Shown one piece after another: positions 2,426 to 57,640 of a DNA stretch of 64,000 nucleotides. The notes below the pieces were generated by a model, which ran no database searches, was not told where the DNA came from, and was given only the letters and a program-made list of their open reading frames with translations. The number at the start of each line of letters is the position of its first letter. Position 1 is the first letter of the stretch. Position numbers and translations under genes: made by a program. The DNA is from Acidobacteriota bacterium (lineage in GTDB: Bacteria; Acidobacteriota; UBA4820; DSQY01). The DNA lies in the NCBI GenBank assembly GCA_037445535.1, contig JBBIKI010000001.1, positions 46,325-110,324 of the forward strand. The letters are read 5' to 3'.

Positions 2426-2908
2426 GTGACCGCCGGCGCCAGGGCAACGCCCCGGCTCTGGGCCGTCCGAAACTCTCCCATTCACGGCAAGGGGATTTTC
2501 GCCCGGTGCGCCATCGCCGCGGGAGCCCGCATCATCGAATACACGGGGGAGCGCCTCTCAGGAGATGAAGCCTCGGCGCGTTACGGCGGCGAAGGTTCGG
2601 GCCCGGTGCACGTGGTCCTCTTTTCCCTTGAGGATGGCATGGCTATTGATGGGGGCCGCGGGGGCAACGAGGCCCGGTTCATTAATCATTCATGCCAGCC
2701 CTCGTGCCAGGCCGTGGAGGAGGAGGGACGCATTTTCATCGAGGCCCTCCGGACCATCGCGCCAGGTGAGGAGCTGACCTACGACTATCACCTGGAGCTT
2801 CCGGGCCGCCACACCCGCGCCGTCAAGGCGCGCTATCCCTGCCACTGCGGCGCCCCCAAGTGCCGGGGCACCTTGCTGGCACCCAAGGGCCGGGCCCGCC
2901 AGGGCTAG
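2426..2908 (+). CDS. SET-domain protein-lysine N-methyltransferase-like protein
   Basis: RFINHSCQPS (NHSC motif), ELTYDY, and a post-SET Cys cluster CHCGAPKCRG. Begins only 16 nt after the ABC permease stop. Confidence 0.8.
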   Translation: MTAGARATPRLWAVRNSPIHGKGIFARCAIAAGARIIEYTGERLSGDEASARYGGEGSGPVHVVLFSLEDGMAIDGGRGGNEARFINHSCQPSCQAVEEEGRIFIEALRTIAPGEELTYDYHLELPGRHTRAVKARYPCHCGAPKCRGTLLAPKGRARQG

Positions 2909-8433: not shown

Positions 8434-11079
8434 TCAGGACTCCTTGTTGTTGCCGGCCGGTTCCTTCGCCCGCGCCACTTCAAGGGCGAGGGCAAGCTCT
8501 TCCTCCTTGGTCGCGCAGCGGCCCTCGAGTTTGGCGGCGCGCGCTGCGTCCAGAGCCCTGGCGATGACGTTGGAGGGCGGAACCCCGGCCCGGGTTAAGT
8601 CCCGCCCCGTGATCTCCAGGGCCAGGAATCGGTCCCGGACGAGGAAATCGCGGACCCGGGCCTGTCCCGCGGGGCCGTCCACCTTAGCCAGGAGGAAGAG
8701 GACCCACTCGATGGGCTGTCCCGCCAGGGCACGGTAGGCCCGCGAGCGGGGAGCGAGACCTTCTCCGCCAACCTCCCGCAGGGCGTGCCACGTGGTGCTC
8801 CGGTACCGGGACAGGAGCTCCTTGGTCTTGCGCGAGAAGGGGTAGCGGGCCAGGAAATCGGCCGTGTTCTGCGTGGGCAGGCGCTCAAGGAGGGCCATGA
8901 AGTACACGCAGGGCCGGTCCAAAGGCGAGTCGGGGAACTGGGTCTCGAAAAAATCCACGGCCTTTTGCACCCGGTAAAGGGATTCCACCACTTTGGGGGT
9001 GAGTTTGAGCGCGGGCCAGAACACCTGGAGGAGGCCGTAGGTCTCCATGGCCTTGAGGCCCTCCACGGCGTTGGACCCGGAGAGGGCCTGGGCCACCTCC
9101 GCCAGCACGCGCTTGGGGGACAGGTGGCGGAAAACGCCCTGTCGGTGAGCCGCGGCGATGAGCCTCTCGGTTTCGGGCATGAGGGTGAACCCGAGGCGCA
9201 CGGCAAAGCGCACGGCCCGAAAGGCGCGGGTGGGGTCTTCCACGAACGAGAGGCCGTGGAGAACCCTCAGGCGCCCCGCCTTGAGGTCCCTCACGCCCCC
9301 GAAGAGATCCAGGATTTCCCCATGCCGGTCCGGGGTAATGGCCATGGCCAGGGCGTTGATGGTGAAATCCCGCCGGTAGAGGTCCTGGTAGAGGGCCGCG
9401 TGGGCCACCGTGGGCAGCGCCGCCGGGGCTTCGTAGTACTCCGCGCGGGCCGTGGCGAAGTCCCAGTGGCCGCCCCCGGGGCGAACCCACACGGCGGTGC
9501 CGAAGGCGGAATGGGCCCTGACATGGCCTCCCTGCTCGGCGGCCCACGCTTCGGCCAAGTCTGCCGCGTCTCCCTCCACCACGAAGTCCACATCCTTCAC
9601 TGGGCGCCTGAGGAGGAGGTCCCTCACGGCCCCCCCCACGAGCAGGCAGGAAACCTCCCTGGCCGCGGCCAGTCTGCCGAGAGCCAGGAGCCGCTCGCCT
9701 TCTTCCGCGGTGAAGGAGGCCTTCACCAAGTGGGATACCTCCCAGGCCGAGGGATGGCCTCCTCCGCGATGGAAGGGGCGGTCGCCCGTCTCCCGGTAGA
9801 GGGTTTTGAAGAGGGCCATGCGGGAGATGAGGCCCTCCACCCGCTCGGGAGAATCGCCGAAGAGGGCGATGCGCCAATTGCGCTCCATCATCTGGCGCCG
9901 CACCTCCTCCACGGGGGTATCAGGCGGCAAGAGGGGGGGCCGGGAGACCACCAGGTCCCCCACGGGAGATTCGCCCAGCCCGTGCTGCAGGGCCCCGTCC
10001 ACCTCCTGGCGCGTCACGACGCCCGCCAGGCGGCCTTCCGCGAACATGGGGAGGGCGTTGACGCGGAACCGGTTCATCTCCCGGAACGCTTCGCGCGTGG
10101 TGGCGGACCCTTCGATGCGCCGGAAGTTCCGCGTCATGACGTCCGCCGCCTTCAGCCCCACGGGGTGGGCGGACGTGAGCTCGTCCAGAAGCAAGAGGCG
10201 AGCTTCCTCGGGGGTCCGGTCGCGGACCACGGCCGAGGCGGCCGAGGCGTGCCCGCCCCCGCCGAAGACCGCCAGCACCTGCCGGACGTCCACGAGGGGA
10301 GTCCGTGACCTCGCGATGATGTGGACGCGGCTCTCCATGGAGGCGAGGAGGAAGAGGGCTTCCAGCCCCTCGATGGCCAAGATTTCATGGGCGAGCAGGC
10401 TCAGGTCGGGCACGTAGGCGGGGGCGCTCAGGGTTGTTATGTGGACGCGCGCGCCGCCCACCAGGACCGACTCCAGGTTCTCCAGCAGGGGAGGCAGGAG
10501 CCGGAGCTGCTCCTCCGTAAGGCCCCGCCGGAGGGTCCGGGATACCTGGCTCAGGTCTCCGCCCCAGGCCAGGCATGCCAGGACCGCCTCGAAATCCTCG
10601 GGCCGGGTGGTAGGGAAGGTAAGAAACCCCGTGTCCTCGTAAATGCCCAAGAGGAAAAGGGAGGCCTCGGCAGGTGAGGGGACCAGGCCCGCGCCTTGGA
10701 TGTGTTTAATGAGGACGGTCGTGCAGGCCCCCGCCTCGCTGACGGCATGGGTCTGGCCCCGGAGATCTCCCGGGCCCTCGTGATGATTGAAGACGTCCAA
10801 GATCACGGGGGGCTGGCGGTCCAGGAGCTCGGCCAGGGGGCCGATCCGGTCCCGGGAGGACACGTCCACGCACACCAAGCGCTCCACGGCGCCTAGGTCG
10901 AGGTCTTTCAAGGGCAGAACTTCGGAGACCTTCCCTCGGTGATCCTCCAGATACCGCCGCACGAGGGCCTCGGAGGCTCCCGAGAAGACCAGGGCCGCGC
11001 CCGGGTAAAGGAGGCGCGCGGCCACCATGCTGGCGAGGGAGTCAAAGTCCGCATTGGTGTGCGTCGTGATGACGATCAT
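8434..11079 (-). CDS. Multidomain DHH/DHHA1 phosphoesterase - tandem CBS - tRNA nucleotidyltransferase/poly(A) polymerase (CCA-adding-like) protein
   Basis: 881 aa. N-terminus MIVITTHTNADFDSLASMV (DHH) with GGGHASAA (DHHA1). Central CBS pair. C-terminal LLVGGAVRDLLLRRPVKDVDFVVEG and RRDFTINALA are hallmarks of the PolyA-pol head. Confidence 0.8.
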   Translation of the reverse strand: MIVITTHTNADFDSLASMVAARLLYPGAALVFSGASEALVRRYLEDHRGKVSEVLPLKDLDLGAVERLVCVDVSSRDRIGPLAELLDRQPPVILDVFNHHEGPGDLRGQTHAVSEAGACTTVLIKHIQGAGLVPSPAEASLFLLGIYEDTGFLTFPTTRPEDFEAVLACLAWGGDLSQVSRTLRRGLTEEQLRLLPPLLENLESVLVGGARVHITTLSAPAYVPDLSLLAHEILAIEGLEALFLLASMESRVHIIARSRTPLVDVRQVLAVFGGGGHASAASAVVRDRTPEEARLLLLDELTSAHPVGLKAADVMTRNFRRIEGSATTREAFREMNRFRVNALPMFAEGRLAGVVTRQEVDGALQHGLGESPVGDLVVSRPPLLPPDTPVEEVRRQMMERNWRIALFGDSPERVEGLISRMALFKTLYRETGDRPFHRGGGHPSAWEVSHLVKASFTAEEGERLLALGRLAAAREVSCLLVGGAVRDLLLRRPVKDVDFVVEGDAADLAEAWAAEQGGHVRAHSAFGTAVWVRPGGGHWDFATARAEYYEAPAALPTVAHAALYQDLYRRDFTINALAMAITPDRHGEILDLFGGVRDLKAGRLRVLHGLSFVEDPTRAFRAVRFAVRLGFTLMPETERLIAAAHRQGVFRHLSPKRVLAEVAQALSGSNAVEGLKAMETYGLLQVFWPALKLTPKVVESLYRVQKAVDFFETQFPDSPLDRPCVYFMALLERLPTQNTADFLARYPFSRKTKELLSRYRSTTWHALREVGGEGLAPRSRAYRALAGQPIEWVLFLLAKVDGPAGQARVRDFLVRDRFLALEITGRDLTRAGVPPSNVIARALDAARAAKLEGRCATKEEELALALEVARAKEPAGNNKES

Positions 11080-12288: not shown

Positions 12289-13044
12289 TCAGGGTTCCGG
12301 CGGCATTCCCGTGTGCTTCCTCAGGGCGGCAACCTCTTCGGGAGTGAGCGGGCGGACCTCGCCGGGTTTCATTTTGCCAAGCAGGACCGGGCCCATGGCA
12401 GTCCGCTTGAGCTTGATGACGGGGTGTTCCACGCGGAAGAACATTTCGCGGAGCTGGTTTTTTCGGCCTTCGGTCATGTCCACCTGGAGCCAGGTGTGGC
12501 GCGTCTCCCGGGCGGGTATGCGCCGGATCGTGACAGGCTGGGTGCGGCGGCCCTCCAGCACGATGCCCCTTCGGAGGCGGTCGAGAGCCTCGTGGGGCGG
12601 ATCGCCCTTGACCTTCACGTGATACGTTTTAACCACTTTATAGCGGGGATGGAGGAGGCGGTTGGCCATCTCGCCGTCGCTGGTGAGGAGCAGGAGCCCC
12701 TCGCTGTGGTAGTCCAGCCGCCCCACGGGGAAGACACCCTTGGAGGCCTTGGGCAGGAGGTCCTTCAGGCACGGGCGGCCCTCGGGGTCCTCCAGGGTGC
12801 TCACCACTTCTTTGGGCTTGTAGAGGGCGAAATAGGCGCCGCCCTTGAGCAGGTGGACCCGGCGGCCGTCCACCTTCACGGCGTCCCGTCCCGGATCCAC
12901 GAGGGTGGCGAGTTCCGGCGCCACCTGGCCGTTGATGGTCACCCGGCCATCCAGGACGAGGGCTTCGGCGGCGCGCCGGGAGGCCACGCCGGCCCGGGCC
13001 AGGAACTGATTGATCCGCATGGTTCCGCGCTCGTCATTGGACAC
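12289..13044 (-). CDS. rluB: Pseudouridine synthase, RsuA/RluB family
   Basis: S4 domain MRINQFLARAGVASRR, with the catalytic region VFPVGRLDYHSEGLLLLTSDG. Confidence 0.8.
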   Translation of the reverse strand: MSNDERGTMRINQFLARAGVASRRAAEALVLDGRVTINGQVAPELATLVDPGRDAVKVDGRRVHLLKGGAYFALYKPKEVVSTLEDPEGRPCLKDLLPKASKGVFPVGRLDYHSEGLLLLTSDGEMANRLLHPRYKVVKTYHVKVKGDPPHEALDRLRRGIVLEGRRTQPVTIRRIPARETRHTWLQVDMTEGRKNQLREMFFRVEHPVIKLKRTAMGPVLLGKMKPGEVRPLTPEEVAALRKHTGMPPEP

Positions 13045-13738
13045 GGCAGGCCTCCTCTTCGGCCCCGCCGGCGGGGGCCTCCGTCTTCTGGAGCCCGTCC
13101 TCGGAGGGTTCGGTGGGGGGCTCGGCGGTCGTCTCCGAGGCGGGTTCGGCGGCGGGCGCAGGCCCCGCGTCCTTGAACAGGCTTTCCTGCCGGACGCCCT
13201 CGCGGAAGACCTCCTCGATCTCCCTGAAGGACGGCAGGTCTTCTAGGGAGTTCAATCCGAAATGAACGAGAAACTCCTTGGTGGTGCCATAGAGGAGGGG
13301 CTTGCCCACCACGTTTTTCCGGCCCGTGATCCGGATGAGTTTCTTGTCCAGAAGTCCTTTCACGACGGAGCCCGACTCGGTGCCCCGGATGGCGCTCACC
13401 TCGGCGCTGGTAACGGGCTGCTTGTAGGCCACGATGGCCAGGGCTTCCACGGAGGCGGGAGTGAGCTTGCGCAGGTTCTGGGCCTTGAGGAAGCTGCGGA
13501 CGAAAAGGGCGTGGGGCGGGCGCGTCACCAAACGGAACCCCTCCGCCACCCGCTCTACCCTCAAGCCCTGGGACTCCTGCTCATAGCGGGACTGGAGGGC
13601 CTCAAGAAGGGAGAGGGCTACGGCGGGGGTCACCTCCCCGTCTAGGGCCTCCGTGACCTGCTGAGCCGTGACGGGGCCCGAGGAGACAAAGAGGATGGCC
13701 TCCACGGCGCCCAGCCGGTCCGATTCTCGCATGGCCAC
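13034..13738 (-). CDS. scpB: Segregation and condensation protein B
   Basis: Winged-helix ScpB motifs [12 protein letters not shown] and [15 protein letters not shown]. Overlaps rluB by 11 nt. Confidence 0.85.
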
Positions 13739-17222: not shown

Positions 17223-17888
17223 GTGCGCGTGGTAGCCGTTGCATCCGTGAATCCGGAGGAAGCACGGGCCATCGGTCTTGGGCTTGGCCTTCTGGCCAGG
17301 GCCGATCTTCGCGTGGAGCATGTGCAGCCCGAGGAGACCCTCGTGGACAGGCTCGTCCTTCGGGACCCGCCGGACCTTCTCCTCATAGACGCCGACATGG
17401 CCAGGTTTCAGCCCTTCCTCGCCATCAAGGCGCTCAGGCGGTTCAGCGCGTTCATGCTCCTGCCCATCTTCGTGGTGTCCGAGGTGGATCGTGCCGAGGA
17501 TGCCAGGGCGGCCGGGGCTACGCGGTTTTTCAGAAAACCGGTCCAAGAGAAGGACCTGGAGGACGCGCTGGCGCGCTTTGTAAAGCCCGTCCTGCGCAAG
17601 GCGCCGCGCAAGGGGCTGCGCGGGCCGTGCGTGGTGTCCAAGGGCGGCCTCAAGTACGAGGGGCGCATCAGCGATGTCTCCATCTTGGGGGCGCAGGTGG
17701 TGGTCTCCGACCGTATACCCGTGGGGACCATGATCCAGCTTGGCTTTGCCCTCATCATGCAGAAGACGCCCCACGTCATCCGGGTCAACGCCCGCATCGT
17801 GCGGGAGGTCCCAGGGGGATACGGCCTGGCGTTCAGCGCCCTGGATCAGCAGGCCCGGGGTCTCATCGCGGCCTTCGCCAAAGCGTGA
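17223..17888 (+). CDS. Response-regulator receiver (REC) - PilZ domain protein (putative c-di-GMP binding)
   Basis: N-terminal REC-like fold (LLLIDADMA Asp, conserved Ser and FFRKP Lys). C-terminal PilZ signatures RKAPRKGLR (RxxxR) and DVSILGAQV (DxSxxG). RBS AGGAGG 6 nt before the GTG. Confidence 0.7.
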   Translation: MRVVAVASVNPEEARAIGLGLGLLARADLRVEHVQPEETLVDRLVLRDPPDLLLIDADMARFQPFLAIKALRRFSAFMLLPIFVVSEVDRAEDARAAGATRFFRKPVQEKDLEDALARFVKPVLRKAPRKGLRGPCVVSKGGLKYEGRISDVSILGAQVVVSDRIPVGTMIQLGFALIMQKTPHVIRVNARIVREVPGGYGLAFSALDQQARGLIAAFAKA

Positions 17889-18051: not shown

Positions 18052-19410
18052 ATGCGATCCGTCAATCCGGCTACGGGAGAGATCATCGGCGACTACCCGG
18101 AACACGGGCCAGAGGAAGTTACGGCCATTCTGTCTCGCGCCCAGGACGCCTTTCAGGCCTGGAGGAACGTACCCTTCGCCGGGCGGAGAGCCCTCATGAA
18201 AGGCGCGGCGGCGGAGCTTCGATGCCACCAGGAAGACTATGCACGGCTCATGACCGCCGAGATGGGGAAGACCCTCGCGGCGGCCAAGGCCGAGGCGGAA
18301 AAGTGCGCCCTGTGCTGTGATTTCTACGCCGAACACGGGGAGTTTTTCCTGGCTCCCGAGACCGTGGCCACGGACGCCTCCCGCAGCCTGATTCGGTACG
18401 ACCCCCTTGGGCCCATCCTGGCGGTCATGCCTTGGAACTTTCCCTTCTGGCAGGTCTTCCGTTTCGCCGCCCCGGCCCTCATGGCGGGCAACGTTGGGCT
18501 CCTGAAGCACGCGTCAAACGTGCCCGGATGCGCCCTGGCCATCGAGGCCATTTTCAAGGAGGCGGGCTTCCCCCCGGGCTGTTTCCAAACGCTCATGATC
18601 GGGTCCGGGGCCGTGGACGCGGTCATCGCCAACCCCGCCGTCAGGGCGGTGACTCTCACGGGGAGCGAACCAGCGGGCATGGCCGTGGCGGCGGCGGCGG
18701 GGCGCGAGCTGAAGAAGACGGTCCTGGAGCTGGGCGGCTCGGACCCCTTCATCATCCTGGAAGACGCCGACATCCAGGCCGCGGCCCTCACGGCGGCCCA
18801 GGCCCGGTGCATCAACAACGGGCAGAGCTGCATCGCCGCCAAGCGCTTCATCGTGGTGGAGCCCGTGGCGGAGGCCTTTGAACAGGCCTTCCTGGCGGCC
18901 ATGGGGGCTCTGCGCGTGGGCGACCCCATGGATCCGGGGACGGATGTGGGACCCATGGCCCGCGAGGATCTTCGGAAGGAGCTACACGGCCAGGTGGAGC
19001 GCTCCGTGGCGGCGGGCGCCGTGCTCAGGCTCGGCGGCAAGCCCATGGAGGGGGAAGGCGCCTTCTACCCGCCCACGGTCCTGACGGGGGTGAAGCCGGG
19101 CGTGGCCGCCTTCGATGAGGAGACCTTCGGCCCCGTGGCGGCGGTGATCCGCGCCAAGGACGCAGGGGAGGCCGTATCCCTGGCCAACAGGTCGCCCTTC
19201 GGCCTCGGGGCGAGCCTGTGGACGAAAGACCTGCGTCGCGGCGAGGCTCTGGCCGCGCAGATCGAATCGGGCTCCGTTTTTATTAACGGCATGGTCAAAA
19301 GCGACCCCCGCCTTCCCTTCGGCGGCGTCAAGCACTCCGGCTACGGCCGCGAGCTGAGCGCCTTCGGCATCCGCGAGTTCGTCAACATCAAGACCGTGTG
19401 GATCGCCTAG
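18052..19410 (+). CDS. NAD(P)-dependent aldehyde dehydrogenase (succinate-semialdehyde dehydrogenase-like)
   Basis: 452 aa. ALDH family, with catalytic Cys in NNGQSCIAAKR and Glu in LELGGSDP. Confidence 0.85.
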   Translation: MRSVNPATGEIIGDYPEHGPEEVTAILSRAQDAFQAWRNVPFAGRRALMKGAAAELRCHQEDYARLMTAEMGKTLAAAKAEAEKCALCCDFYAEHGEFFLAPETVATDASRSLIRYDPLGPILAVMPWNFPFWQVFRFAAPALMAGNVGLLKHASNVPGCALAIEAIFKEAGFPPGCFQTLMIGSGAVDAVIANPAVRAVTLTGSEPAGMAVAAAAGRELKKTVLELGGSDPFIILEDADIQAAALTAAQARCINNGQSCIAAKRFIVVEPVAEAFEQAFLAAMGALRVGDPMDPGTDVGPMAREDLRKELHGQVERSVAAGAVLRLGGKPMEGEGAFYPPTVLTGVKPGVAAFDEETFGPVAAVIRAKDAGEAVSLANRSPFGLGASLWTKDLRRGEALAAQIESGSVFINGMVKSDPRLPFGGVKHSGYGRELSAFGIREFVNIKTVWIA

Positions 19411-20579
19411 GGATGTACCACCAAGGCGCCTTGGCGTCTGGGTGGTTCACTCGTTTTTCCCGCCGTGTAGGCGGCGGCGGGATACCCGACGAAGTGGTAG
19501 AGGTTGGACGGCGCCGTCACGCCGAGCCCCGGCGTTTTCACCGGGAGCTGGGGCCACCCCGCGGAGGTGGCGTAGGCCAAGGGCCAGCCTTGCAAGGTAG
19601 CGCCCTGGGCCGAGGCGAGCTTCTGCAGCAGGAGCAGGCCGAGAGGGACGCAGTAGCGCCCGCACCAGGTGAGGCGGCACTGGGCCGGGTCCTTGGGATC
19701 GCAGAACGTTTCAAAAGCCTGCCGTACCTTGGCGGCGGTCATGGTTCCCGCCAGCGGCCCTGCGAGGAGGGCGCGGTCCATGGCGCAGGCGTGTGTGTAG
19801 GCCTCCACGCCGCCCTCCCCGTGGGGTGTGTAGTTGAAATCGGGGCCGTAGTGCACGCCGTCGGAGGACATCACCACCGCCACATCCCGCCCGAGCACCC
19901 AGCCGCGCGCCTCGAGGCTGGAGCCGAGGGCGGTGCCAAGGTGCGCCGCCAGCGCCTGCATTCGGTTCAAATCCATGACGGGGACCATGACCGGCACGAT
20001 GTCCAGGTCCGGGGTCTGGTGTTTGAGCCAGTAGACGACGGCCTCCACCGAATGCTCCGAATCGTGCATGGCGGCGCTCTGCACCGCGTCCTCCTTGGGG
20101 AGCTTGTCCAGCAGGTCTTCTCTGAGCGAGGAAACGGGCACCTCTCCGTCTGGACTTCGCCACGCCCGGTAGGGGTCGAAGACCAGGGTGTCCTTTGCAC
20201 CGAATTTGCGCCACCCGTGGAATACGCCCAGCACGATGACGTGCTTAGCCTTCACCAGGGGTAGCACGGCCCGGTAGACACGGCCTGCGTAGAGGTAGTC
20301 GTCGTGGGGGCAGACCGCTCCCCAGACGGGGCCGGCGGGTGCGTCTCCGAGTTTGTCCGGGCGGGGTTCCGTGGAGGAGCGGTCCCACACCTCGGCCATC
20401 TGGGGCGCGGTGGAGGCGAATCCCACGGCATCCTTCTGGCCGCGGACACCGCCCTGAGAGGGGAGTCCCATGTCCTTCCGGACTTGGCCGAGTGCGGGCA
20501 GCTCAGGGTGGCCGCCGGTGCCCCCCGCGCGGACCGAGAGAAGGACCGCCACCAGCGCGAGGAACAGCAGAGAGCGCAT
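19407..20579 (-). CDS. MEMO1-family protein (AmmeMemoRadiSam system protein B-like) with N-terminal signal peptide
   Basis: Motifs align to MEMO1: CPHDDYLYAG (PHAGYxY), VLGVFHG (GPSHH), SEHSVEA (DEHSIE), SSDGVHYG (SSDFCHWG) and CGRY (CGRH). N-terminus MRSLLFLALVAVLLSVRA looks like a signal peptide. Overlaps the ALDH stop by 4 nt, convergent. Confidence 0.65.
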   Translation of the reverse strand: MRSLLFLALVAVLLSVRAGGTGGHPELPALGQVRKDMGLPSQGGVRGQKDAVGFASTAPQMAEVWDRSSTEPRPDKLGDAPAGPVWGAVCPHDDYLYAGRVYRAVLPLVKAKHVIVLGVFHGWRKFGAKDTLVFDPYRAWRSPDGEVPVSSLREDLLDKLPKEDAVQSAAMHDSEHSVEAVVYWLKHQTPDLDIVPVMVPVMDLNRMQALAAHLGTALGSSLEARGWVLGRDVAVVMSSDGVHYGPDFNYTPHGEGGVEAYTHACAMDRALLAGPLAGTMTAAKVRQAFETFCDPKDPAQCRLTWCGRYCVPLGLLLLQKLASAQGATLQGWPLAYATSAGWPQLPVKTPGLGVTAPSNLYHFVGYPAAAYTAGKTSEPPRRQGALVVHP

Positions 20580-20600
20580 GGGCTCACCTCCGGCAGGCTG

Positions 20601-21917
20601 CTAGCCTGTGATTTGGGTCCCCTTGGTCTCCGGAAGGGTCCACACCCAGAGGCCCGTGAATAGGGCGAAGAAGGCCCCGATGGAGATGCCAGCCCCCAGG
20701 CCGTTGCTCTGGGCCAGGGGAAGGGTGGTGACCCAGGTGATGATGACCGGCGTGAAGAACTGCGCGCCGCGGGAGAGGTTGAAGGCGACGCCCATGGCGC
20801 TGTTTCGGATGCGTGTGGGGAAAAGCTCGGAGAAAATGGGGCCGTAGCCCGAGAAGTTTCCGGTCCCCAGCCCCACCAGCATCATGAAGGCCAGGGGCAG
20901 CCAGGGGAACCGGCCCGTGGTCCCCCAGAACCACGTGATGCCGAGGAGCCCCAGGGCCCATATCATGGAGTAGGCGGAATAGGCCCACCGGCGCCCCTTC
21001 CAGTCGGCTACCACCCCGAAGGAGAGGTACCCGGCAAAGGCCGCCACTTGGGTGAGAATCATCCACAGGCCGCTCTTCACCAGGGAAAAACCCAGGTGGT
21101 CGTAAAGATACTTGGGCATCCACGTGTAGGTGAACCAGTAGGCGGACATGTCCGCCACGGCCAGGACGAGCCCCAGGAGAAAGAGCTTGCGCAGGAGGCC
21201 GTCGGCGCGAAGCTCGCGCAGGAGCCCCGGCGTGCGGGCCGGCTCGCTTCGCCGGCTGGAGGCCCAAACATCAGATTCGGGCATGTGGCGCCGGATCACG
21301 ACCACGAGGCTTGCGGGGAGGAGGGAGACGAAGAAGCAGGCGCGCCAACCCCAGTCGGGGCCCAGGAAAGACACGAAGAACGGCTCCACGAAGGATCCCA
21401 CTACCGAGGCCAAGAGGATACCGAGGGGGGCGCCCGTCTGCATGACGGCGGCGAACCGGGCCCGCATCCTGGCGGGAAAGGTCTCCCCCACGAGGGTCTG
21501 CCCCGTGGCCCACTCTCCGCCCACGCCGAGGCCCGTCACGATCCTGAAAATGAGAAAGAGCCAGAAAGCGTGGGACATGCCGCAGAGGAAGGTTCCCGCG
21601 GAATAGGTCAGCAGGGTCCAGGTGAGAACCCGCTTGCGCCCGAAGCGGTCCGCCAGGACGCCGAAGATGATGCCTCCCAGCGCCGTGGCCGCGAGGGTGG
21701 TGCCCAGAAGGAGGGAGAGCTCGTAGTCGCTCAGGGCCAAGCTGCGCTTGATGGGAACGAGAAGGAACGACAGGAGCATGAGGTCGTAAAAATCGAAGAG
21801 CCACCCCGCCCAGGCCATGCCCAGAATGACGTAGTGCTTCCTCGTGGGCCGTCCAGTTTGGTTCAGCAGACGGAGCGCGTCCGTTTGGGCCATGGTCCCC
21901 CCCCAGGATGTCTCCAA
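20601..21917 (-). CDS. MFS transporter (sugar/aromatic-acid porter-like)
   Basis: 438 aa, with GRKRVL and twelve predicted TM segments. Confidence 0.8.
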   Translation of the reverse strand: METSWGGTMAQTDALRLLNQTGRPTRKHYVILGMAWAGWLFDFYDLMLLSFLLVPIKRSLALSDYELSLLLGTTLAATALGGIIFGVLADRFGRKRVLTWTLLTYSAGTFLCGMSHAFWLFLIFRIVTGLGVGGEWATGQTLVGETFPARMRARFAAVMQTGAPLGILLASVVGSFVEPFFVSFLGPDWGWRACFFVSLLPASLVVVIRRHMPESDVWASSRRSEPARTPGLLRELRADGLLRKLFLLGLVLAVADMSAYWFTYTWMPKYLYDHLGFSLVKSGLWMILTQVAAFAGYLSFGVVADWKGRRWAYSAYSMIWALGLLGITWFWGTTGRFPWLPLAFMMLVGLGTGNFSGYGPIFSELFPTRIRNSAMGVAFNLSRGAQFFTPVIITWVTTLPLAQSNGLGAGISIGAFFALFTGLWVWTLPETKGTQITG

Positions 21918-22013: not shown

Positions 22014-22484
22014 ATGAAAGGTGTCTTCGCATGGGCCTTGGGCCTGGCACTCGTGTCCCTCATGGGACCGGCGCCGCGGGGTGCGGCAGGGGCGGACAAG
22101 GGGACGCTGCTGGAGGCGGATATGGCCTTTGCCAGGGCCACGGCCGAGAGGGGCCTGGAGGGATGGCTGTCGTGGTTCGCGCCGGATGCCAGAATCTTCC
22201 CTCCAGGGGAGCCCGTCATCGAGGGGCTGGATGCCATCAAGGCCCACTACCTCAAGACGGGGTTCGATCCCCGGCCGCTGACATGGAAACCGGCCTACGC
22301 CGAACTCAGCGCCTCGGGGGATCTGGGGTACACGGTGGGCTATGCCTCGTGGCCGGGCACGGACGACCAGGGCCGGAAGGTGGCGCATGGCAGCAAGTAC
22401 CTGACCGTCTGGAGGAGGCAGCCCGGCGGCGCGTGGAAGGTGGCGGCGGACATCGGAAACGCTGCGCCTGCCACGCGCCCGTAG
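22014..22484 (+). CDS. Secreted DUF4440/NTF2-like (SnoaL-like) protein
   Basis: ATG at 22014 after AGGAGGG. Signal peptide MKGVFAWALGLALVSLMGPA. C-terminal YLTVWRRQPGGAWKVAAD is typical of DUF4440. The long upstream part of ORF 21048-22484 is antisense to the MFS gene and was rejected. Confidence 0.55.
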   Translation: MKGVFAWALGLALVSLMGPAPRGAAGADKGTLLEADMAFARATAERGLEGWLSWFAPDARIFPPGEPVIEGLDAIKAHYLKTGFDPRPLTWKPAYAELSASGDLGYTVGYASWPGTDDQGRKVAHGSKYLTVWRRQPGGAWKVAADIGNAAPATRP

Positions 22485-32531: not shown

Positions 32532-32990
32532 TCAGCTCTTCTGGTCCGGAGGCTTGCCCTTCTTCCCGCCGTCCTGCACTTGGATAATCACTTCGATATC
32601 CTTGGGCGAAGCCTCGCCTTGAGCAGGGACGTCGTGTATCGTTGGCCGGGCTCCCTCGAAGAGCTCTGGGAACTTGGCTTCCAGCGCCTGCACCAGCTCC
32701 CGGGTTGTTCCTTCGAATTCAAGTCCCGCCCGGTACATGAGCACTTTCTTCCCCTCGTGCTCCGTCCAGCCTAGGACCGTGCAGCGTCGCACCGTCCCCG
32801 TCAGAGAGAGGTCCGCCCCTCCGTTCTGCAGGCGGACGTCGCATCGTGTTCGCAGGGGGAGCGAGTAGGACAGCTCCACCTGCACACCAAGGGAGGAGAT
32901 GTCCACCACCCTGGCCGTAAGGGACGTCTTCACCTTGGCCTTAATGGGCCTCTTGGGCGAAACTCTTAGCGCGCGGCGGCGGTCCAACAT
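32532..32990 (-). CDS. Stand-alone PilZ-domain protein
   Basis: RRRALRVSPKRPIK (RxxxR-like) and ARVVDISSLGVQV (DxSxxG). 152 aa. Confidence 0.65.
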   Translation of the reverse strand: MLDRRRALRVSPKRPIKAKVKTSLTARVVDISSLGVQVELSYSLPLRTRCDVRLQNGGADLSLTGTVRRCTVLGWTEHEGKKVLMYRAGLEFEGTTRELVQALEAKFPELFEGARPTIHDVPAQGEASPKDIEVIIQVQDGGKKGKPPDQKS

Positions 32991-33129: not shown

Positions 33130-33336
33130 TTAGTCGCGGAGCGCCTGAACTTGGTCCGCCTGCGGACCTTTGGCCCCCTCCTTGACCTCAAAGGAGACCT
33201 TTTCTCCCTCAGCGAGCTTGCGGAACCCGCTGCCGACGATGGCGCTGTAGTGGACGAACACGTCCTTACCGCCATCTTCCGTGATGAACCCGTAGCCCTT
33301 TTTCTCGTCGAACCACTTCACTGTTCCTGTAGACAT
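33130..33336 (-). CDS. cspA: Cold-shock protein (CspA family)
   Basis: [33 protein letters not shown], with RNP1/RNP2 motifs. 68 aa. Confidence 0.9.
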
Positions 33337-33465
33337 TGCAGCTCCTTCATTTGAAAATCGTCCCTCCGGTAAACGGGCTCACCGGAGACCCGAACGTACC
33401 ATCCCATCCCGCCCTCTGTCAAGCTGGCACAGTCTTTCAGGGCCTTTCCGCCGGGCCGCGCCGCG

Positions 33466-33494
33466 TTGACGCTGGGGTCGGGCCACGGTAAACT
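33466..33494 (+). promoter_or_regulatory. Predicted sigma70 promoter of the pyrR-pyrB-pyrC operon (TTGACG-N17-TAAACT)
   Basis: -35 TTGACG at 33466-33471 and -10 TAAACT at 33489-33494, about 100 nt upstream of the pyrR ATG. Confidence 0.4.
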
Positions 33495-33596
33495 GAACCA
33501 TGACCGGAGAGACCGCGCCACCCCTTCCGTCGTCCGTGAGGGGTAGTCCCGGGGAGGGGCGCCCAGCGCCAGCCCCCGGCCAAGGAGACCGATCCC

Positions 33597-34154
33597 ATGA
33601 AGCGGAAGACCATCCTCGACGCGGCGGGCATCCAGCGCACCCTGGGCCGCCTGGCCCTGGAACTCGCCGAGCGCCTCCAGGGGTGCGAGGGCGTGGTGCT
33701 CATCGGCATCCACCGGCGGGGCGTACCTCTGGCCCGGCGCATCGCTGACAAGCTCAGCGAGGTGGAGAAGGTGCAGGTGCCCGTGGGGAGCCTGGACATC
33801 AACCTCTACCGGGACGATTTCTCCAGCGCGGGGACGGCTCCCGTCCTCCGTGGAACCCAGGTGGACTTCGACATCGAGGGGCGGACCGTGGTTCTGGTGG
33901 ATGACGTCCTTTTCACCGGGAGGACCATCCGCGCGGCCCTCGACGCCCTCGTAGACTTGGGGCGCCCGGCCCGGGTCCAGCTCGCGGTCCTCGTGGACCG
34001 CGGCCACCGGGAACTGCCCGTTCAGGCCGACTATGTGGGCCTCTCCCTCAACACGCGGCGAGAGGACCACGTGGAGCTGCACCTAACCGAGTTCGACGGC
34101 GAGGACGCGCTCCTGTTGGAGACGCAGATCACCGCCAAGGAGGGGAGACCATGA
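33597..34154 (+). CDS. pyrR: Bifunctional pyrimidine operon regulator / uracil phosphoribosyltransferase PyrR
   Basis: 185 aa. PRPP-binding [18 protein letters not shown] and PyrR N-terminus [15 protein letters not shown]. Confidence 0.9.
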
Positions 34155-35089
34155 ACTGGCGCCACAAACACCTCCTGGGCATCGAAGGGCTCGCGCCGGA
34201 AGAGATCAACCTCGTCCTGGACACGGCGGACAAGATGGCCGAGGTGGCCACGCGTCCCGTTAAAAAAGTGCCCGCCCTCCGCGCCAAACTCGTGGTGAAC
34301 CTGTTCTTCGAAAATTCCACCCGCACCCGTTCCTCCTTCGAGATCGCCGAGAAGCGCCTGAGCGCCGACACCCTCAACTTCTCCGCCAGCACCTCCTCGG
34401 TGAACAAGGGCGAATCCCTCGTGGACACCATCCTCAACATCGAGCGCATGATGCCCGACTGCTACGTCATGCGGCACCCCAGCCCCGGCGCGGGCCAGCT
34501 CATCAGCGGGTTCACCAAGGCCTCCATCGTCAACGCGGGGGACGGTGCCCATGAACACCCCACGCAGGCCCTCCTCGATGCCATGACCATCCGCCAGCGG
34601 AAGGGCGGCTTCAAGGGGCTCCAAGTCCTCATCGCCGGGGACATCGCCCACTCCCGCGTGGTGCGGTCCAACATCCACCTCCTCAACACGATGGGTGCCG
34701 AGGTCACGGTGTGCGGCCCAGCCACCCTGCTCCCGCCGCACATCGAGAGCCTCGGTGTGAGAGCGAGCACGGACTTCGAGGAGGCGATCAAGGGCAAGGA
34801 CGTGGTCATGATGCTGCGCATCCAACTCGAGCGGCAGAAGCGCGGCCTTTTCCCCTCCCTCACGGAGTACTACCAGCGTTACGGCCTCACCGAAGAGCGG
34901 CTGAAGCTGGCGGCTAAGGACGTCATCGTCATGCACCCCGGGCCCATGAACCGGGGGGTGGAAATCGCCTCCGAGGTGGCCGACGGGCCCACTTCGGTGA
35001 TCCTGGACCAGGTGGAGAACGGCGTGTCGGTGCGCATGGCCGTGCTGTACCTCCTGCTGGGCGGAGGGGAAGATGTATCTGCTCATTAA
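34151..35089 (+). CDS. pyrB: Aspartate carbamoyltransferase catalytic subunit
   Basis: STRTR, HPTQAL and HPGP motifs. ATGA overlap with pyrR. Confidence 0.9.
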
Positions 35090-36350
35090 GAACGGCCGCG
35101 TGGTGGACCCCTCCTCGGGCACCGACGAGACCCTCGACGTGCTCATTAAGGACGGCCGCGTGGAGGCCGTGGACAAAAAGCTGGAGGCAAAGGGGGCCGA
35201 GGTCCTGGACGCCACGGGCCTCATCGTGGCCCCGGGATTCTTGGACATGCACGTGCACCTGCGGGAGCCAGGCTACGAACGCAAGGAGACGATCGCCACG
35301 GGTTTGGCGGCCGCTCTCGCGGGAGGCTTCACGGGGGTCTGCTGCATGCCCAATACGGACCCCGTCAACGACAGCGCCTCCGTGACCCGATTCATCCTGG
35401 ACCGGGCTAGGGCGGTGAGCCCCGTCCGTGTCTATCCCATCGGTGCCATCACGAAAGAGTCCAAGGGCGAGGAGCTGGCCCCCTACGCGGAGCTGAGAGA
35501 GGCCGGCGTGCGGGCCCTATCGGACGACGGCAAGCCCGTGGTGAAGGCCTCGGTCATGCGCCGGGCCATGGAATACGCGGGCTCCCTGGGGCTGCTGGTC
35601 ATTGACCACTGCGAAGACCCGGATCTGGCCGGAGAGGGTTCCATGCACGAAGGCACGGTTTCGGTGCGCCTGGGACTCAAGGGCATCCCCGCGGAGGCTG
35701 AGGTCATTCCCATCCGCCGTGACATCTCCCTGGCGCGCCTCACGGGACAGCGAGTCCACATCGCCCACGTCTCCACCCGGCTGGGCGTGGAAGCCATACG
35801 CGCCGCCAAGAAAAAGCGCCTTCCCGTCACCGCCGAGGCTACGCCCCACCACTTCACCCTCACGGATGAAGCGGTGGCGGGCTTTGACACGAACGCCAAG
35901 ATGAACCCCCCCTTGAGGGGCAAGGACGACGTGGACGCGGTCATCGAGGGTTTGGCCGACGGCACCCTCGACGCCATCGTCACGGATCACGCCCCTCATG
36001 CCTACGAGGAGAAGATGGTGGAGTTCGACCGGGCCCCCAACGGGATCATCGGCCTCCAAACGGCCGTCCCCCTGGCGCTGGACCGCCTCGTGAAGACCGA
36101 CCGCATTTCCCTCAAGCGCATGGTGGACGCCTTCTCCTGCGCCCCCGCGCGCCTGCTGGGTCTCACGGACAAGGGAAAGATCGCTCCGGGGGTGGAGGCG
36201 GATCTCACCCTCTTTTCCCTGCGCAAAGAGACGCGTCTCACGGCCGGGGACATCAAATCCCTGAGCAAGAACACTCCCTTCCTGGGGATGAAACTCAAGG
36301 GCGCCGTAGTGGCCGTGGTCATCGGCGGCCGGGTGTACCCGGCGAGATGA
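35073..36350 (+). CDS. pyrC: Dihydroorotase (multifunctional-complex type)
   Basis: [10 protein letters not shown], and Asp/His metal ligands of the amidohydrolase fold. 425 aa. Confidence 0.85.
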
Positions 36351-37937: not shown

Positions 37938-38507
37938 CTAGTTTCCCTTGGAATGGGTCGCCGGTGTCTGTGCCGGGGCGGGGCGGGTATCCACCGGAGG
38001 ATGGCCCGCGGGGAGGCCCGTGGCGTCTCCGTGGGCCGGCATGCCCGAAGGCGCGCCCTCGCCTCCCATGGCGGGGTGGCCGGGAGGCATCTCGCCCGCG
38101 CCCGGGGACATACCGCCGCTGTGGGCGCCGCTCTTGGATTTGGAGGAGGTGACCTTCCAGGCGCCGTTCTCCTGGGCCAGCTCGTAGGTGTATTCCATGG
38201 GCGCCATCCCGCCGCCCTTCACGGTGAAGGTAACATCACAGGTTGCCTTGTTACCTTCAATTTTCTGGCCCGTCACCGCCACCTCCATCTTGGACAGGTT
38301 CAGCTGGCGCACATCCTGGAGGTACGCGTAGACGGCTTTCTGGATGGGGTCAGAGGGGGCAGGCGCGCCAGCGGACTCGGGCGCGGCCACCGGGGCGGCG
38401 ATCTGTCCCGTCTGGGCCTGGTCGTTGGGGGTGGCGGGCTTGGAACAGGCCAGGCCAAGGCAGGCCAGAAGCAGGGCAGCCGGGATCGCGATGGGCTTCA
38501 GGTGCAT
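37938..38507 (-). CDS. Putative lipoprotein with C-terminal Met/His/Gly/Pro-rich tail (candidate periplasmic metal-binding protein)
   Basis: Start chosen at the ATG (MHLKPIAIPAALLLACLGLACS) because the RBS GGAGAAA lies 6 nt upstream. Lipobox-like LAC/LAC. Small folded domain followed by GMSPGAGEMPPGHPAMGGEGAPSGMPAHGDATGLPAGHPP. Confidence 0.6.
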   Translation of the reverse strand: MHLKPIAIPAALLLACLGLACSKPATPNDQAQTGQIAAPVAAPESAGAPAPSDPIQKAVYAYLQDVRQLNLSKMEVAVTGQKIEGNKATCDVTFTVKGGGMAPMEYTYELAQENGAWKVTSSKSKSGAHSGGMSPGAGEMPPGHPAMGGEGAPSGMPAHGDATGLPAGHPPVDTRPAPAQTPATHSKGN

Positions 38508-38703
38508 GGGTTGTTTCTCCTCAAAACAGGGACGGAACACCAAATCGCGAGCCCCCGCTTTTCGGGGGCCGCGAGCACGGCTAGTGTACCCCAGCCTTCC
38601 TCCCCATGGAAAACTGCACTGGACAACTTCCCGAAGGTCTCGCGGCGTGAAACCTTCCTCAACGGTCCCGCGTTTAAATCAACACGGGGTGAGGAGGTGG
38701 ATC

Positions 38704-39534
38704 ATGAAACGCCAGCTAGCGGTTGCGGTGATGGCGCTGTTCCTGTGGATGACCGTGGGGTGCGCCCAAGCATGGCTGAGCGCCTCGGCGACGGACCGGC
38801 AGGAGCAAACGATCCCCCTGGACCAGGGAGGGACCTTATCCCTCGACAACGTGAATGGCAACGTGACGGTGAAGGCCGTGGAGGGACACTCGGTCCACTT
38901 CGTGGCCGTGAAGCGGGCCAGGGCCCTGGATGAGAGCAAGGCCCGTGAGGGCTTGTCCAAACTCACGGTGGCCGTGGAGAGCTCCCCCGCGGCCATTTCC
39001 ATCACCACCCGGTACCCCTCCAACCCGAGCGGGATGCTCTTCGGGGCCGGTGTGTATCTGGCCGTGGACTACACCATCGAGGTGCCCCGGGGCACGAAGG
39101 TGAAGCTCTCGGGAGTGAACGGGTCCATGGACGTGGACGCTCCCGGCTCGGAGGTGGCCTGCGAGGCTACCAACGGCACCATCCGCGTGGAGGGAGCCGC
39201 GGTGCTCAGCGCCACCACCGTCAACGGGCGCATCCGCTTCGCCGCTGACCAAGTGGGCGAGGTGAATTCCACCAACGGCTCCGTGGAAGGATCCCTGTTG
39301 GGACTGGCCCCCGGGGCGGGGCACGTGGAGACCGTGAACGGGCATGTGGCGCTCGCGATTCCATTGAAGGCGGCCTTGAGGATCGAGGCGGAGAACGTGA
39401 ACGGATCTATCCGCAGCGTCCTGCCGGGCCTGACGGCGGAGAAGCACAGCCTCACAGGGAACTTGAACGGCGGCGGGGCGACCCTCACCGTGGAGACGGT
39501 CAACGGGGGCATCGAGATCAAGTCGGCTTCGTAA
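38704..39534 (+). CDS. Secreted DUF4097-family (putative adhesin / beta-helix repeat) protein
   Basis: ATG at 38704 after GAGGAGGTGG. Signal peptide [23 protein letters not shown]. Repeated VNGxI/V motifs ([42 protein letters not shown]) are typical of DUF4097. The upstream part of ORF 38344-39534 was rejected. Confidence 0.65.
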
Positions 39535-44106: not shown

Positions 44107-44751
44107 ATGATCACGGGATTCAACCAGGACGTCACCTACAAGGGTAAGGTCTACCACGTCCAGACGGAGGACCGGGGCACGAATAACCCGGTCATCGAAA
44201 CCCTCATCTACGCGGGGGGGGAAATCCTGTCCTCCAAGAAGAGCTCGTACGAAGACCTCCTTCAGGAGGGATACGAGGAGCCCAAGCTCATGGCCCGGCT
44301 GGAGCAGCAGCACCGGCGCGTGGTGGTGGACATCAAGTTGGGCAAATACGCCAAGGAGCCGGAGGAGGCTTTCGGCGCAGGCCTCGTATCTTCGAGAAGC
44401 CTGGACGAGGTGATCCTAGACTACCTTACCAGCGAGGCGGAAGGAGAGAAGCTGTCCGTGGCCATCCTTGACCAGCAGCAGCCCGTGGCGGGAGAGCGAG
44501 CCTGGATCAAGCTCAAGGCCGCCACCGACATCAGCAAAACGGCTCTTGCGGGAGCCCACGTTACGGTGAGGCTCACCTCCACCAGCGGACAGACCCAGGA
44601 TCTCTTCGCCGGCCGCACCGACGACCAAGGGCTCTGCTCCGCCGAGTTTCTGGTGCCGGCCGTGGCCGAGAACGCCGTGGTCCTCACGGAGGTGACCCAC
44701 GCCAAGGGTGCGTACCAGCACAAGGCGCTGGTGGCTAAGAAGGCGCCATGA
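44107..44751 (+). CDS. Hypothetical protein (214 aa, no recognisable domain)
   Basis: Clean ORF with an ATG start. Soluble, acidic N-terminal half and Ala/Val-rich C-terminal half. No motif I can assign. Stop overlaps (ATGA) the start of the downstream ThiS-like gene. Confidence 0.5.
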   Translation: MITGFNQDVTYKGKVYHVQTEDRGTNNPVIETLIYAGGEILSSKKSSYEDLLQEGYEEPKLMARLEQQHRRVVVDIKLGKYAKEPEEAFGAGLVSSRSLDEVILDYLTSEAEGEKLSVAILDQQQPVAGERAWIKLKAATDISKTALAGAHVTVRLTSTSGQTQDLFAGRTDDQGLCSAEFLVPAVAENAVVLTEVTHAKGAYQHKALVAKKAP

Positions 44752-45054: not shown

Positions 45055-45129
45055 TGGTGGGCGGTGAGGGATTCGAACCCCCGACATCCTGCGTGTAAGG
45101 CAGGCGCTCTTCCGCTGAGCTAACCGCCC
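45055..45129 (-). tRNA. tRNA-Val (anticodon UAC)
   Basis: The reverse complement GGGCGGTTAGCTCAGCGGAAGAGCGCCTGCCTTACACGCAGGATGTCGGGGGTTCGAATCCCTCACCGCCCACCA folds as a cloverleaf: 7-bp acceptor stem, D-arm, anticodon loop CTTACAC, TPsiC loop TTCGAAT, 3' CCA. Confidence 0.85.
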
Positions 45130-45293: not shown

Positions 45294-45737
45294 GTGCTTG
45301 AAGAGATCGTCAAAAACCTGTGGCATATCCCTATCCTGATGGCCATGATCCTGGTCTACGGATTCCTGCTCAACCGCGTCCTTTTCCGGCCCGTCCTGCG
45401 GGTTCTTGACGACCGGAAAGGCAGGATCCGCGAGGCCGGCGCCCTCTCGGAGCAGTCCCGCGAGTCTCTCAAGCAGCGGTTCGCCGATTACGAGCAGGCC
45501 GTGCTGGAGGCCCACCGCAAGGGCACGCACATCAAGGAAGAGGCGCGCGGCAAAGCGTACGCGTACCGCTCCCAGGTGCTGGGTGCCATGAAAGCCGAGA
45601 TGGACGCGGAGATTCGCAAAACTGAGTCGGAGCTCAAGGCGAGCACGGAAACCATCAAGAAAGAATTGGACGCCACGACGCCCGACCTCGTAAAGATCAT
45701 GACCTCCAAGATCCTCGGCCGCGAGGTGGCCCCGTGA
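45294..45737 (+). CDS. atpF2: F0F1 ATP synthase subunit b' (second b-type subunit)
   Basis: Single N-terminal TM helix IPILMAMILVYGFLLNRVLF followed by a long charged coiled coil. First gene of the atp cluster. Confidence 0.7.
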   Translation: MLEEIVKNLWHIPILMAMILVYGFLLNRVLFRPVLRVLDDRKGRIREAGALSEQSRESLKQRFADYEQAVLEAHRKGTHIKEEARGKAYAYRSQVLGAMKAEMDAEIRKTESELKASTETIKKELDATTPDLVKIMTSKILGREVAP

Positions 45738-46348
45738 GGCGCCGGGCCGCCGCCTTCGCCCTGCTCCTGCCGGGCGCGGCGATGCTGGCTCAGGAGGCCG
45801 GAAAGGCCGCTGAGGGTGCCGTGGAACATGCCCCTGGCTGGGTGGACCCCATCTGGGGCGTCCCCATGATCGTTTGGCAGATCATCAACCTTCTCCTCGT
45901 GGTTGGGCTCTTCGTGTACCTCCTTCGGAGGCCCGCACCGCAGTTCTTCCAGGGGCGCGCCAAGGAAATTCAAGACCTCCTGGAGAAAGCGGTGCGTGAG
46001 AAGGAGGAGGCCACACAGCGCCTGAAGGAGGTCGAAGCCAAGATGGAGCGCCTCCAGGACGAAGTCTCCGCCATTGAGACCGCGGCCAAGCAGCAGGCCG
46101 AGGTGGACAGGCAGCGCGTGCAGGCTGAGGCCGAACAGGCCCGAGAACGCATCCAGCAGGAAACCAAAGACGAGATCGAACGCCGTCTCACGGAGGCCCG
46201 CCGTGACTTGCGGACCTACGCGGCGGACAGCGCCGTGGCGGCGGCCAGGGACATCTTGGCCAAAGCGGTGACGGACGCGGATGAGGACAGGCTCCGCGGC
46301 CGGTTCCTTTCGGAAATGGAGGAGGAAGCCCATGAGCGCCAGGGCTAA
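45734..46348 (+). CDS. atpF: F0F1 ATP synthase subunit b
   Basis: N-terminal hydrophobic segment, single TM IINLLLVVGLFVYLL, and a long Glu/Arg/Ala-rich coiled coil. ATGA overlap with atpF2. Confidence 0.7.
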   Translation: MRRRAAAFALLLPGAAMLAQEAGKAAEGAVEHAPGWVDPIWGVPMIVWQIINLLLVVGLFVYLLRRPAPQFFQGRAKEIQDLLEKAVREKEEATQRLKEVEAKMERLQDEVSAIETAAKQQAEVDRQRVQAEAEQARERIQQETKDEIERRLTEARRDLRTYAADSAVAAARDILAKAVTDADEDRLRGRFLSEMEEEAHERQG

Positions 46349-46865: not shown

Positions 46866-46871
46866 GAAGAG

Positions 46872-48392: not shown

Positions 48393-48395
48393 GCC

Positions 48396-50713
<2,318 letters not shown>

Positions 50714-51916: not shown

Positions 51917-51918
51917 GG

Positions 51919-55055: not shown

Positions 55056-55070
55056 GTGGAGCGGCCACCC

Positions 55071-57495: not shown

Positions 57496-57640
57496 GGCGC
57501 GAAGGGCCGCCAAACGGGACGCAATTGGCCCTCGTGAGCGTTCGTTCAAAGGCCCGCCTCCCATCCCGTTGATGGCTCCCGGCCCTATCCTCCCCCATGG
57601 CTCCCATGGTACATTGGCCACCTGTCTTGGAGGGAAATCC

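Follow-up and report, generated by a model that had tools for sequence, protein, structure and literature searches.

Why would an Acidobacteriota bacterium carry, apart from the genes that usually accompany it, a member of the MEMO1 family that begins with what looks like a signal peptide? The gene in question occupies positions 19407 to 20579 on the minus strand of a 64,000-nucleotide stretch of DNA (hereafter the window; positions 46,325 to 110,324 of contig JBBIKI010000001.1, assembly GCA_037445535.1). A preliminary description of this DNA had suggested that an exported, stand-alone Memo-like metalloenzyme would be an undescribed context for the family; the protein is not a one-off but one ordinary representative of a family that numbers over 1000 sequences, and on the evidence of its alignments belongs to a distinct, widespread subfamily recognizable by its leader, an extension of ~55 residues, a PHDD motif and a C-terminal insert with T355 and H362. 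We consider it probable that the product is a Sec-exported, partner-independent Memo-subfamily protein that acts in the periplasm as a mononuclear-metal enzyme on a small substrate. The gene and the parts of its product on which this argument depends are as follows.

19407..20579, minus strand: ORF (open reading frame) of the predicted exported Memo-like protein, 390 aa plus stop, ATG start, complete
20584..20591, minus strand: Shine-Dalgarno sequence GGAGGTGA, read from the sequence, 4 nt 5' of the ATG at 20579-20577
20526..20579, minus strand: predicted Sec signal peptide, residues 1-18, MRSLLFLALVAVLLSVRA, with cleavage predicted after A18 by manual analysis of n-, h- and c-regions
20325..20498, minus strand: family-specific N-terminal extension, residues 28-85, with the motif R46-x3-D50-x-V-G53-F54, from conserved columns in three alignments
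19455..20324, minus strand: Memo/LigB-fold catalytic core, residues 86-375
20304..20306, minus strand: codon of His92, equivalent to the MEMO1 metal ligand His49, in the invariant PHDD motif (alignment, 79 sequences)
20217..20219, minus strand: codon of His121, equivalent to the MEMO1 metal ligand His81 (same alignment)
19662..19664, minus strand: codon of Cys306 (WCGR), equivalent to the MEMO1 metal ligand Cys244 (same alignment)
19851..19862, minus strand: codons of D240 to H243 (SSDGVHYG), equivalent to the MEMO1 second-shell residues D189/H192 (alignment)
19410..19454, minus strand: lineage-specific 15-residue C-terminal tail GKTSEPPRRQGALVVHP, residues 376-390, found in no homologue of the alignment

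Sequence models, fold and metal-site residues all place the protein in the Memo family, in agreement with its first assignment. Pfam Memo (PF01875) matches residues 88-323 at E 1.7e-17, scoring 64 bits where 27 are required, over positions 36-241 of its 269-position profile, and NCBIfam TIGR04336 matches with 72 bits against a cutoff of 26, partially, over profile positions 36-200 of 270. These two generic Memo-type models are the only ones in Pfam or NCBIfam to match, the MEMO1 equivalog model NF001987 being missed widely (51 bits vs 295). The query sequence alone finds no match in the PDB, but a family profile search of the same database reaches MEMO1 at E 1e-9. An AlphaFold2 model built on an alignment of 79 sequences, whose members are 31-85% identical to the query, has a mean pLDDT (predicted local distance difference test) of 94.7 and a pTM (predicted template modelling score) of 0.90, and the top match of a Foldseek search of the PDB with this model is human MEMO1 (3BCZ, E 4.5e-17, target TM-score 0.76), closer than any LigB-type dioxygenase.

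A profile alignment to MEMO1 pairs PH92DD with PH49AG, GVxH121 with GPSH81, EH176SxE with EH131SIE, SSD240xxH243YG with SSD189FCH192WG and WC306GR with IC244GR, confirming the His/Asp/Cys set that the preliminary description had proposed to verify in this way; H92, H121, C306, D240 and H243 are invariant in the 79 sequences. The hallmark motifs listed in that description are all present (PHDDYLYAG 91-99, GVFHG 118-122, EHSVE 175-179, SSDGVHYG 238-245 and WCGR 305-308), although GVFHG has one His where MEMO1 has two. Crystals of MEMO1 contain Fe and Cu bound by H49, H81 and C244, and the variants H49A and C244S lose iron binding (PMC11081632; PMC9477392). Because the residues equivalent to this triad are conserved, the metal site appears to have been retained, and the Memo-like protein would be expected to bind metal.

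The protein nevertheless differs from MEMO1 in several respects. Identity to the human protein (3BCZ, 7KQ8, 7L5C) is 17-20%; MEMO1 is cytosolic and leaderless, whereas a Sec leader is predicted here, together with the N-terminal segment and the C-terminal insert that MEMO1 does not have, and PHAG in MEMO1 is replaced by PHDD, in which D93 and D94 are invariant. Other proteins of the fold are further removed. Class III LigB-type extradiol dioxygenases (LigAB, DesB, aminophenol dioxygenase, MhpB) use Glu as third ligand where Cys306 stands here, and their structural similarity to the Memo-like protein is much lower than that of MEMO1; the protein is not a LigB-type dioxygenase, since it lacks the carboxylate ligand of the 2-His-1-carboxylate site, and no ring-cleavage pathway operon surrounds the gene in the window or its counterparts in a set of 86 loci. 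This set, used throughout, comprises the window and 85 fetched loci, from a clade of Acidobacteriota/Eisenbacteria type. TK2203 of Thermococcus kodakarensis (5HEE) is far more distant than MEMO1, has 262 residues against 390, and is without either leader or N-terminal extension.

Whether the hydrophobic N-terminus is real depends in the first place on the start codon. The ORF has a third-position GC content (GC3) of 0.84, matching other genes in the window, and its next in-frame Met is Met37. Translation from there would make the leader an artefact and the protein cytoplasmic, as might be suggested by four database entries (P0004, P0005, P0041, P0106) that begin at the equivalent Met of the sequence MGIPS. 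In the tree, however, these short entries stand singly and dispersed among relatives that have a leader, and the leader is present in full-length relatives from isolate genomes. The Shine-Dalgarno sequence GGAGGTGA precedes the first ATG at an ideal distance, whereas the Met37 site is poor: a purine-rich AAGGA ends 1 nt from that ATG, and no ribosome-binding site comparable to GGAGGTGA is found before it. Upstream of Met37, P28, V33 and R34 are invariant or nearly so, as protein, across 22 aligned relatives. Because of the Shine-Dalgarno sequence and these conserved upstream residues we take the first ATG to be the true start and the hydrophobic N-terminus to be real, and attach almost no weight to an internal start. 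A scan for promoters and terminators around the gene gave nothing above shuffled expectation.

Starting from this codon, the leader has the organization expected of a Sec signal peptide when its regions are inspected manually: a charged n-region (M-R), an h-region SLLFLALVAVLLS within the usual 7-15 residues, and small residues at -3 and -1 (V-R-A/G). The N-terminus MRSLLFLALVAVLLSVRA/GG contains one Arg, a hydrophobic core of 13-14 residues (the highest Kyte-Doolittle average over any 10 residues is 3.38) and, ahead of the predicted cleavage site, V at -3 followed by A at -1. Equivalent leaders occur in the 22 aligned relatives, usually ending in AQA and otherwise in xRA. More broadly, among 252 family members of 330-420 aa, 225 (~89%) have a hydrophobic segment before the R-x3-D-x-G-F motif, and these leader-bearing relatives come from Acidobacteriota, Eisenbacteria, Bacteroidota and other phyla, so that the signal-peptide-like segment noted in the original reading of this single sequence holds for most of the family. 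A looser regular expression detects a lipobox-like Cys in ~36 members and a Tat-like twin-arginine motif in only 2. Components of the export machinery (SecDF, YajC, YidC) are encoded in the same window.

Most of the 27 leaderless members are scattered singletons whose gene calls start at an internal Met. There is one coherent clade of seven without a leader (P0344, P0359, P0360, P0363, P0366, P0367, P0368), whose proteins begin a few residues before R-x3-D-x-G-F; for P0368 (L090 7761-8120) a stop codon that lies in frame 16 codons ahead of the start confirms the absence. These proteins seem to represent a cytoplasmic branch within a family whose other members are exported. Judged by these predicted leaders, export is the dominant state of the family and is not universal.

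It could also be that the hydrophobic segment is retained as an uncleaved signal anchor that tethers the Memo domain to the outer face of the inner membrane. The AlphaFold2 model shows residues 2-18 as a single helix, the cleavage site was assigned by manual criteria, and the lipobox-like Cys of some relatives would likewise give membrane attachment. The hydrophobic core, on the other hand, is shorter than a typical membrane span, and the small residues at -3 and -1, here and in the AQA of most relatives, are those expected for signal peptidase I; we regard an anchor as improbable. The sequence of events that we propose would instead begin with export of the precursor by the Sec system, followed by cleavage, probably by signal peptidase I after Ala18, which would free a mature protein of ~372 residues into the periplasm of this diderm Acidobacteriota bacterium. 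The mature protein would adopt the Memo branch of the LigB/extradiol-dioxygenase fold, keeping the His-His-Cys triad of H92, H121 and C306 together with the D240/H243 pair and H176, with Fe(II) or Cu(I) as the predicted metal, and the subfamily would act alone rather than as the B component of an AMMECR1/radical-SAM system.

The segment following the leader had been described as a linker of roughly 60 residues rich in Gly and Pro, a description that does not survive alignment: residues ~30-85 are conserved and are modelled at pLDDT 95-97, and only residues ~19-29 look like a spacer. Within this extension D50 and G53 are invariant in the 79 sequences and R46 and F54 nearly so, and in distant members R-x3-D-x-V-G-F sits just after the leader. 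The alignment to MEMO1 begins only at about residue 74-84. At the other end of the protein the C-terminal insert carries the invariant T355 and H362. The tail beyond it is modelled weakly (pLDDT 65-81 in the last two blocks), and its reading frame continues to the CTAG shared with the stop of the neighbouring aldehyde dehydrogenase gene, which suggests that the tail arose by loss of an ancestral stop codon.

A word-indexed protein search returned 1034 matches; each of the top 120 has a length of 338-506 aa and an identity of 55% or more. In an exhaustive search of 1.84 billion representatives of 50%-identity clusters, 89 clusters reached E<=1e-30 and 906 reached E<=0.001. Named hosts include Geothrix, Holophaga, Thermoanaerobaculia and other Acidobacteriota, Eisenbacteria, Bacteroidota, Ignavibacteriales, Krumholzibacteria and Anaeromyxobacteraceae. 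Some members have several domains (P0146, P0161, P0362, P0121), joining the Memo-like domain to DUF1080 (3-keto-disaccharide hydrolase), to a metallophosphoesterase, to a BD-FAE/alpha-beta hydrolase or to a GH94 supersandwich domain. The first three of these partners are typically exported domains, and P0146 (the BD-FAE esterase fusion) and P0161 begin with leaders of their own; errors in gene calling or in the assembly of metagenomes may account for some of the multi-domain members. A search of the literature for an exported bacterial Memo found no description of one. Burroughs et al., in 2019, reportedly distinguished five Memo-clade families with contexts beyond AMMECR1 and radical SAM, and the subfamily may already be delineated there.

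Where sources (the Prokaryotic Genome Annotation Pipeline, PGAP, and the Joint Genome Institute, JGI) name these relatives, they call them "AmmeMemoRadiSam system protein B" or "MEMO1 family protein", which raises the question of whether this is a true system B protein with its AMMECR1 and radical-SAM partners at other loci of the genome. The shared name, the TIGR04336 score well above its cutoff and the confinement of the partner search to gene neighbourhoods, as distinct from whole genomes, all speak for such a role. Against it, as the preliminary description had reported for this locus, there is no partner in the window: no AMMECR1 or Radical_SAM Pfam domain occurs among the ~46 proteins scanned. 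Nor did the search for a conserved operon in relatives, which that description had named as a possible refutation, recover one in the 86 loci or in 28 others; across several phyla, the 6-10 kb around the gene contain neither of the two partners in the homologous loci examined. The AMMECR1 signature RGC[IVL]G is absent from the flanks of the 85 fetched loci, its single match, in a 108-aa ORF of the window, being judged spurious, and radical-SAM-like ORFs with CxxxCxxC appear in only three scattered loci of the 86 (L024, L047, L067). The match to TIGR04336 is moreover partial, and a clear distance separates the subfamily from the remaining Memo proteins, as seen in its lack of a single-sequence match in the PDB and in the fact that only 906 of the 1.84 billion cluster representatives come in at the permissive threshold. 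Radical-SAM enzymes need cytoplasmic reductants and S-adenosylmethionine (SAM), and a B protein that is exported, as predicted here, could not meet them. Since two of the three components (the AMMECR1-like A protein and the radical-SAM enzyme) are absent from the neighbourhoods examined, this is not an AmmeMemoRadiSam system as defined, and we think it very unlikely that the protein serves one. Because no such neighbour is found and because the neighbours that are found vary by lineage, the name "AmmeMemoRadiSam system protein B" is probably an over-annotation for the subfamily.

The genes that do surround the Memo-like gene are those given in the preliminary description, namely an aldehyde dehydrogenase gene convergent with a 4-nt overlap, a transporter of the major facilitator superfamily (MFS) and a DUF4440 protein of secreted type.

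18052..19410, plus strand: aldehyde dehydrogenase (succinate-semialdehyde dehydrogenase-like), convergent, the two stops overlapping in the palindrome CTAG at 19407-19410
20601..21917, minus strand: MFS transporter, upstream of the Memo-like gene on the same strand with a gap of 21 nt
22014..22484, plus strand: DUF4440/SnoaL-like protein (Pfam) with a hydrophobic leader, divergent from the MFS gene

The MFS transporter and the Memo-like gene are probably co-transcribed. The best NCBIfam match of the transporter is to the aromatic acid/H+ symporter subfamily (186 bits, below cutoff). Relatives at 68-71% identity share the synteny of the window (CarB, PilZ, aldehyde dehydrogenase, Memo, DUF4440, HI0933-like). 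The slot directly upstream holds the MFS gene in the window and its two nearest relatives, and in relatives at 68-71% identity a gene resembling membrane fatty-acid desaturases/hydroxylases (L003 9004-9978, L004 2091-3065); this looks like gene replacement at one position of the locus with the flanking synteny unchanged. Further housekeeping genes in the window encode CarB, ATP synthase, YidC-MnmE-MnmG-RsmG-ParAB, UvrA and SecDF.

Clustering of all ORFs within 6 kb across the 86 loci gave no neighbour family present in more than 20, and the largest clusters represent housekeeping or otherwise generic functions (PAS kinase, UvrD, CysRS, MnmA, dienelactone hydrolase (DLH), amine-oxidase-like flavoprotein). 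Genes found directly adjacent to the Memo-like gene are the following.

DLH: 16 of the 86 loci, downstream, convergent
Amine-oxidase-like flavoprotein: 11 loci, upstream, same strand
MnmA: 7 loci, downstream, convergent
Aldehyde dehydrogenase: 6 loci, downstream, convergent
Fur: 4 loci, including Geothrix, upstream, same strand
Zn alcohol dehydrogenase: 3 loci, upstream, same strand
MFS transporter: 3 loci, upstream, same strand
Fatty-acid-desaturase-like: 2 loci, upstream, same strand

The annotated contexts of distant members are equally varied, and the Memo-like gene behaves as a stand-alone unit.

The main rival to an enzymatic role is one in metal handling: the protein could be a buffer, chaperone or sensor of periplasmic Fe(II) or Cu(I). 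Its His2Cys residues are conserved, and MEMO1 binds Fe(II) and Cu(I) there without demonstrated catalytic activity (PMC9477392; PMC11081632). Such a function would parallel the roles in iron homeostasis and copper sequestration that have been proposed for human MEMO1, and Fur is the immediate upstream neighbour, in the same orientation, at the four loci listed above, and is found no more than 7 kb away in L087. Iron reduction by Geothrix and its relatives yields Fe(II) outside the cytoplasm. Adjacency to Fur is rare, however; it was set aside, with that to the fatty-acid-desaturase-like gene, as too infrequent to build on, and no metal transporter or chaperone gene recurs next to the Memo-like gene in the 86 loci. 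There are also ~30 non-ligand residues, among them D93, D94, W140, R153, E175, E179, Y244, W305 and H362, that are invariant or nearly so among sequences 30-45% identical, more than a simple metal-binding site would need. Because of these residues a specific enzyme fits better than a simple metal carrier, and we hold the metal-handling role to be unlikely. Our best guess is a periplasmic His2Cys enzyme using Fe(II) or Cu(I), and the pattern of conservation suggests a mononuclear-metal enzyme acting on a small periplasmic substrate.

As to the substrate, scattered neighbours and fusions offer a weak lead toward phenolic or aromatic compounds. The hints are hydrolases of DLH and feruloyl-esterase type, the aromatic-acid-type MFS transporter, the aldehyde dehydrogenase, and a fold related to that of ring-cleaving dioxygenases. 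Hydrolases of DLH or S9/BD-FAE type recur as neighbours, and the two that were translated (L001, L086) bear leaders of their own. A functional link to alpha/beta hydrolases was considered, given the 16 DLH loci, the P0146 fusion and a neighbour in Bacteroidia, and was downgraded to a weak lead because the adjacency is limited to relatives at least 76% identical. It is tempting to speculate that the protein works in the periplasm as a free-standing enzyme whose substrate, converted at the His2Cys metal site of the Memo fold, is a defined small molecule such as an envelope lipid or a phenolic or aromatic compound, but we offer this only tentatively and think it doubtful in so specific a form.

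Several observations weigh against our reading of the protein as an exported, self-sufficient enzyme. Most host lineages are anaerobes, and a free active-site Cys would be unusual in an oxidising compartment. Export and cleavage are predicted, from manual criteria and conservation, and the leaderless clade of seven implies that Memo-like chemistry is not confined to the periplasm. Partner genes were sought in gene neighbourhoods rather than in whole genomes. The hints from neighbours are each confined to one sub-lineage: the DLH gene of Acidobacteriota is convergent and not co-transcribed, and the hydrolase adjacency in 23 metagenome loci of Bacteroidota type occurs only within the group of close relatives already mentioned. 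MEMO1 itself has no dioxygenase activity on standard catechol substrates (PMC11081632). Its inactivity on catechols, together with the anaerobic habit of most hosts, disfavours O2-dependent ring cleavage.

The window contains other features, away from the Memo-like gene, that may be recorded here. A bacterial SET-domain protein of 160 aa (2426-2908, plus strand; Pfam SET, E 3.8e-23) adjoins an ABC-2 transporter pair and an Fe/Mn superoxide dismutase, and in an 881-aa protein (8434-11079, minus strand) DHH and CBS domains are joined to a poly(A) polymerase/CCA-adding head, a multi-domain architecture like that of tRNA nucleotidyltransferases. There are two PilZ-domain proteins (17223-17888, plus strand, and 32532-32990, minus strand); the first has an N-terminal receiver-like domain below the Pfam threshold and is kept beside CarB in relatives (L004). 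A gene run of the type found in origin regions (YidC, MnmE, MnmG, RsmG, ParA, ParB) extends over 51724-59243 on the plus strand, preceded by the genes for ATP synthase delta, alpha, gamma and beta (46281-50713) and a 142-codon ORF at 50725-51153, and cumulative GC skew climbs over most of the window. Three ORFs of 214-396 aa (38344-39534 and 44107-44751, plus strand, and 45488-46333, minus strand) have coding-like GC3 and no Pfam match at E 1e-6; a tRNA-Val gene (tac; 45055-45129, minus strand) lies between the latter two. ORFs 33318-35248 (minus strand) and 12313-13176 (plus strand) have first-position GC at or above third-position GC and overlap adjacent gene calls; they may be degraded genes or frames wrongly called. 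The interval between ScpB and an aminotransferase gene holds an S4/pseudouridine-synthase gene in relatives and only ~750 bp in the window.

Taken as a whole, the subfamily is real and consistent, a distinct variant of a known family and not a new type of system. The name "AmmeMemoRadiSam system protein B" is probably wrong for hundreds of database entries, and the subfamily merits a family model of its own. Neither for human MEMO1, which has been linked to cancer cell migration and to the handling of iron and copper, nor for the prokaryotic proteins linked to AMMECR1 and radical-SAM enzymes has a molecular activity of the Memo fold been settled. A lone, predicted exported subfamily that keeps the metal site separates the Memo domain from its usual partners, and this separation suggests that the domain has an intrinsic, self-sufficient activity. 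Cultivable Geothrix species carry the subfamily, making experimental study feasible, and if the protein is indeed a free-standing periplasmic enzyme it would provide a simple bacterial system in which to determine the chemistry of the Memo fold.

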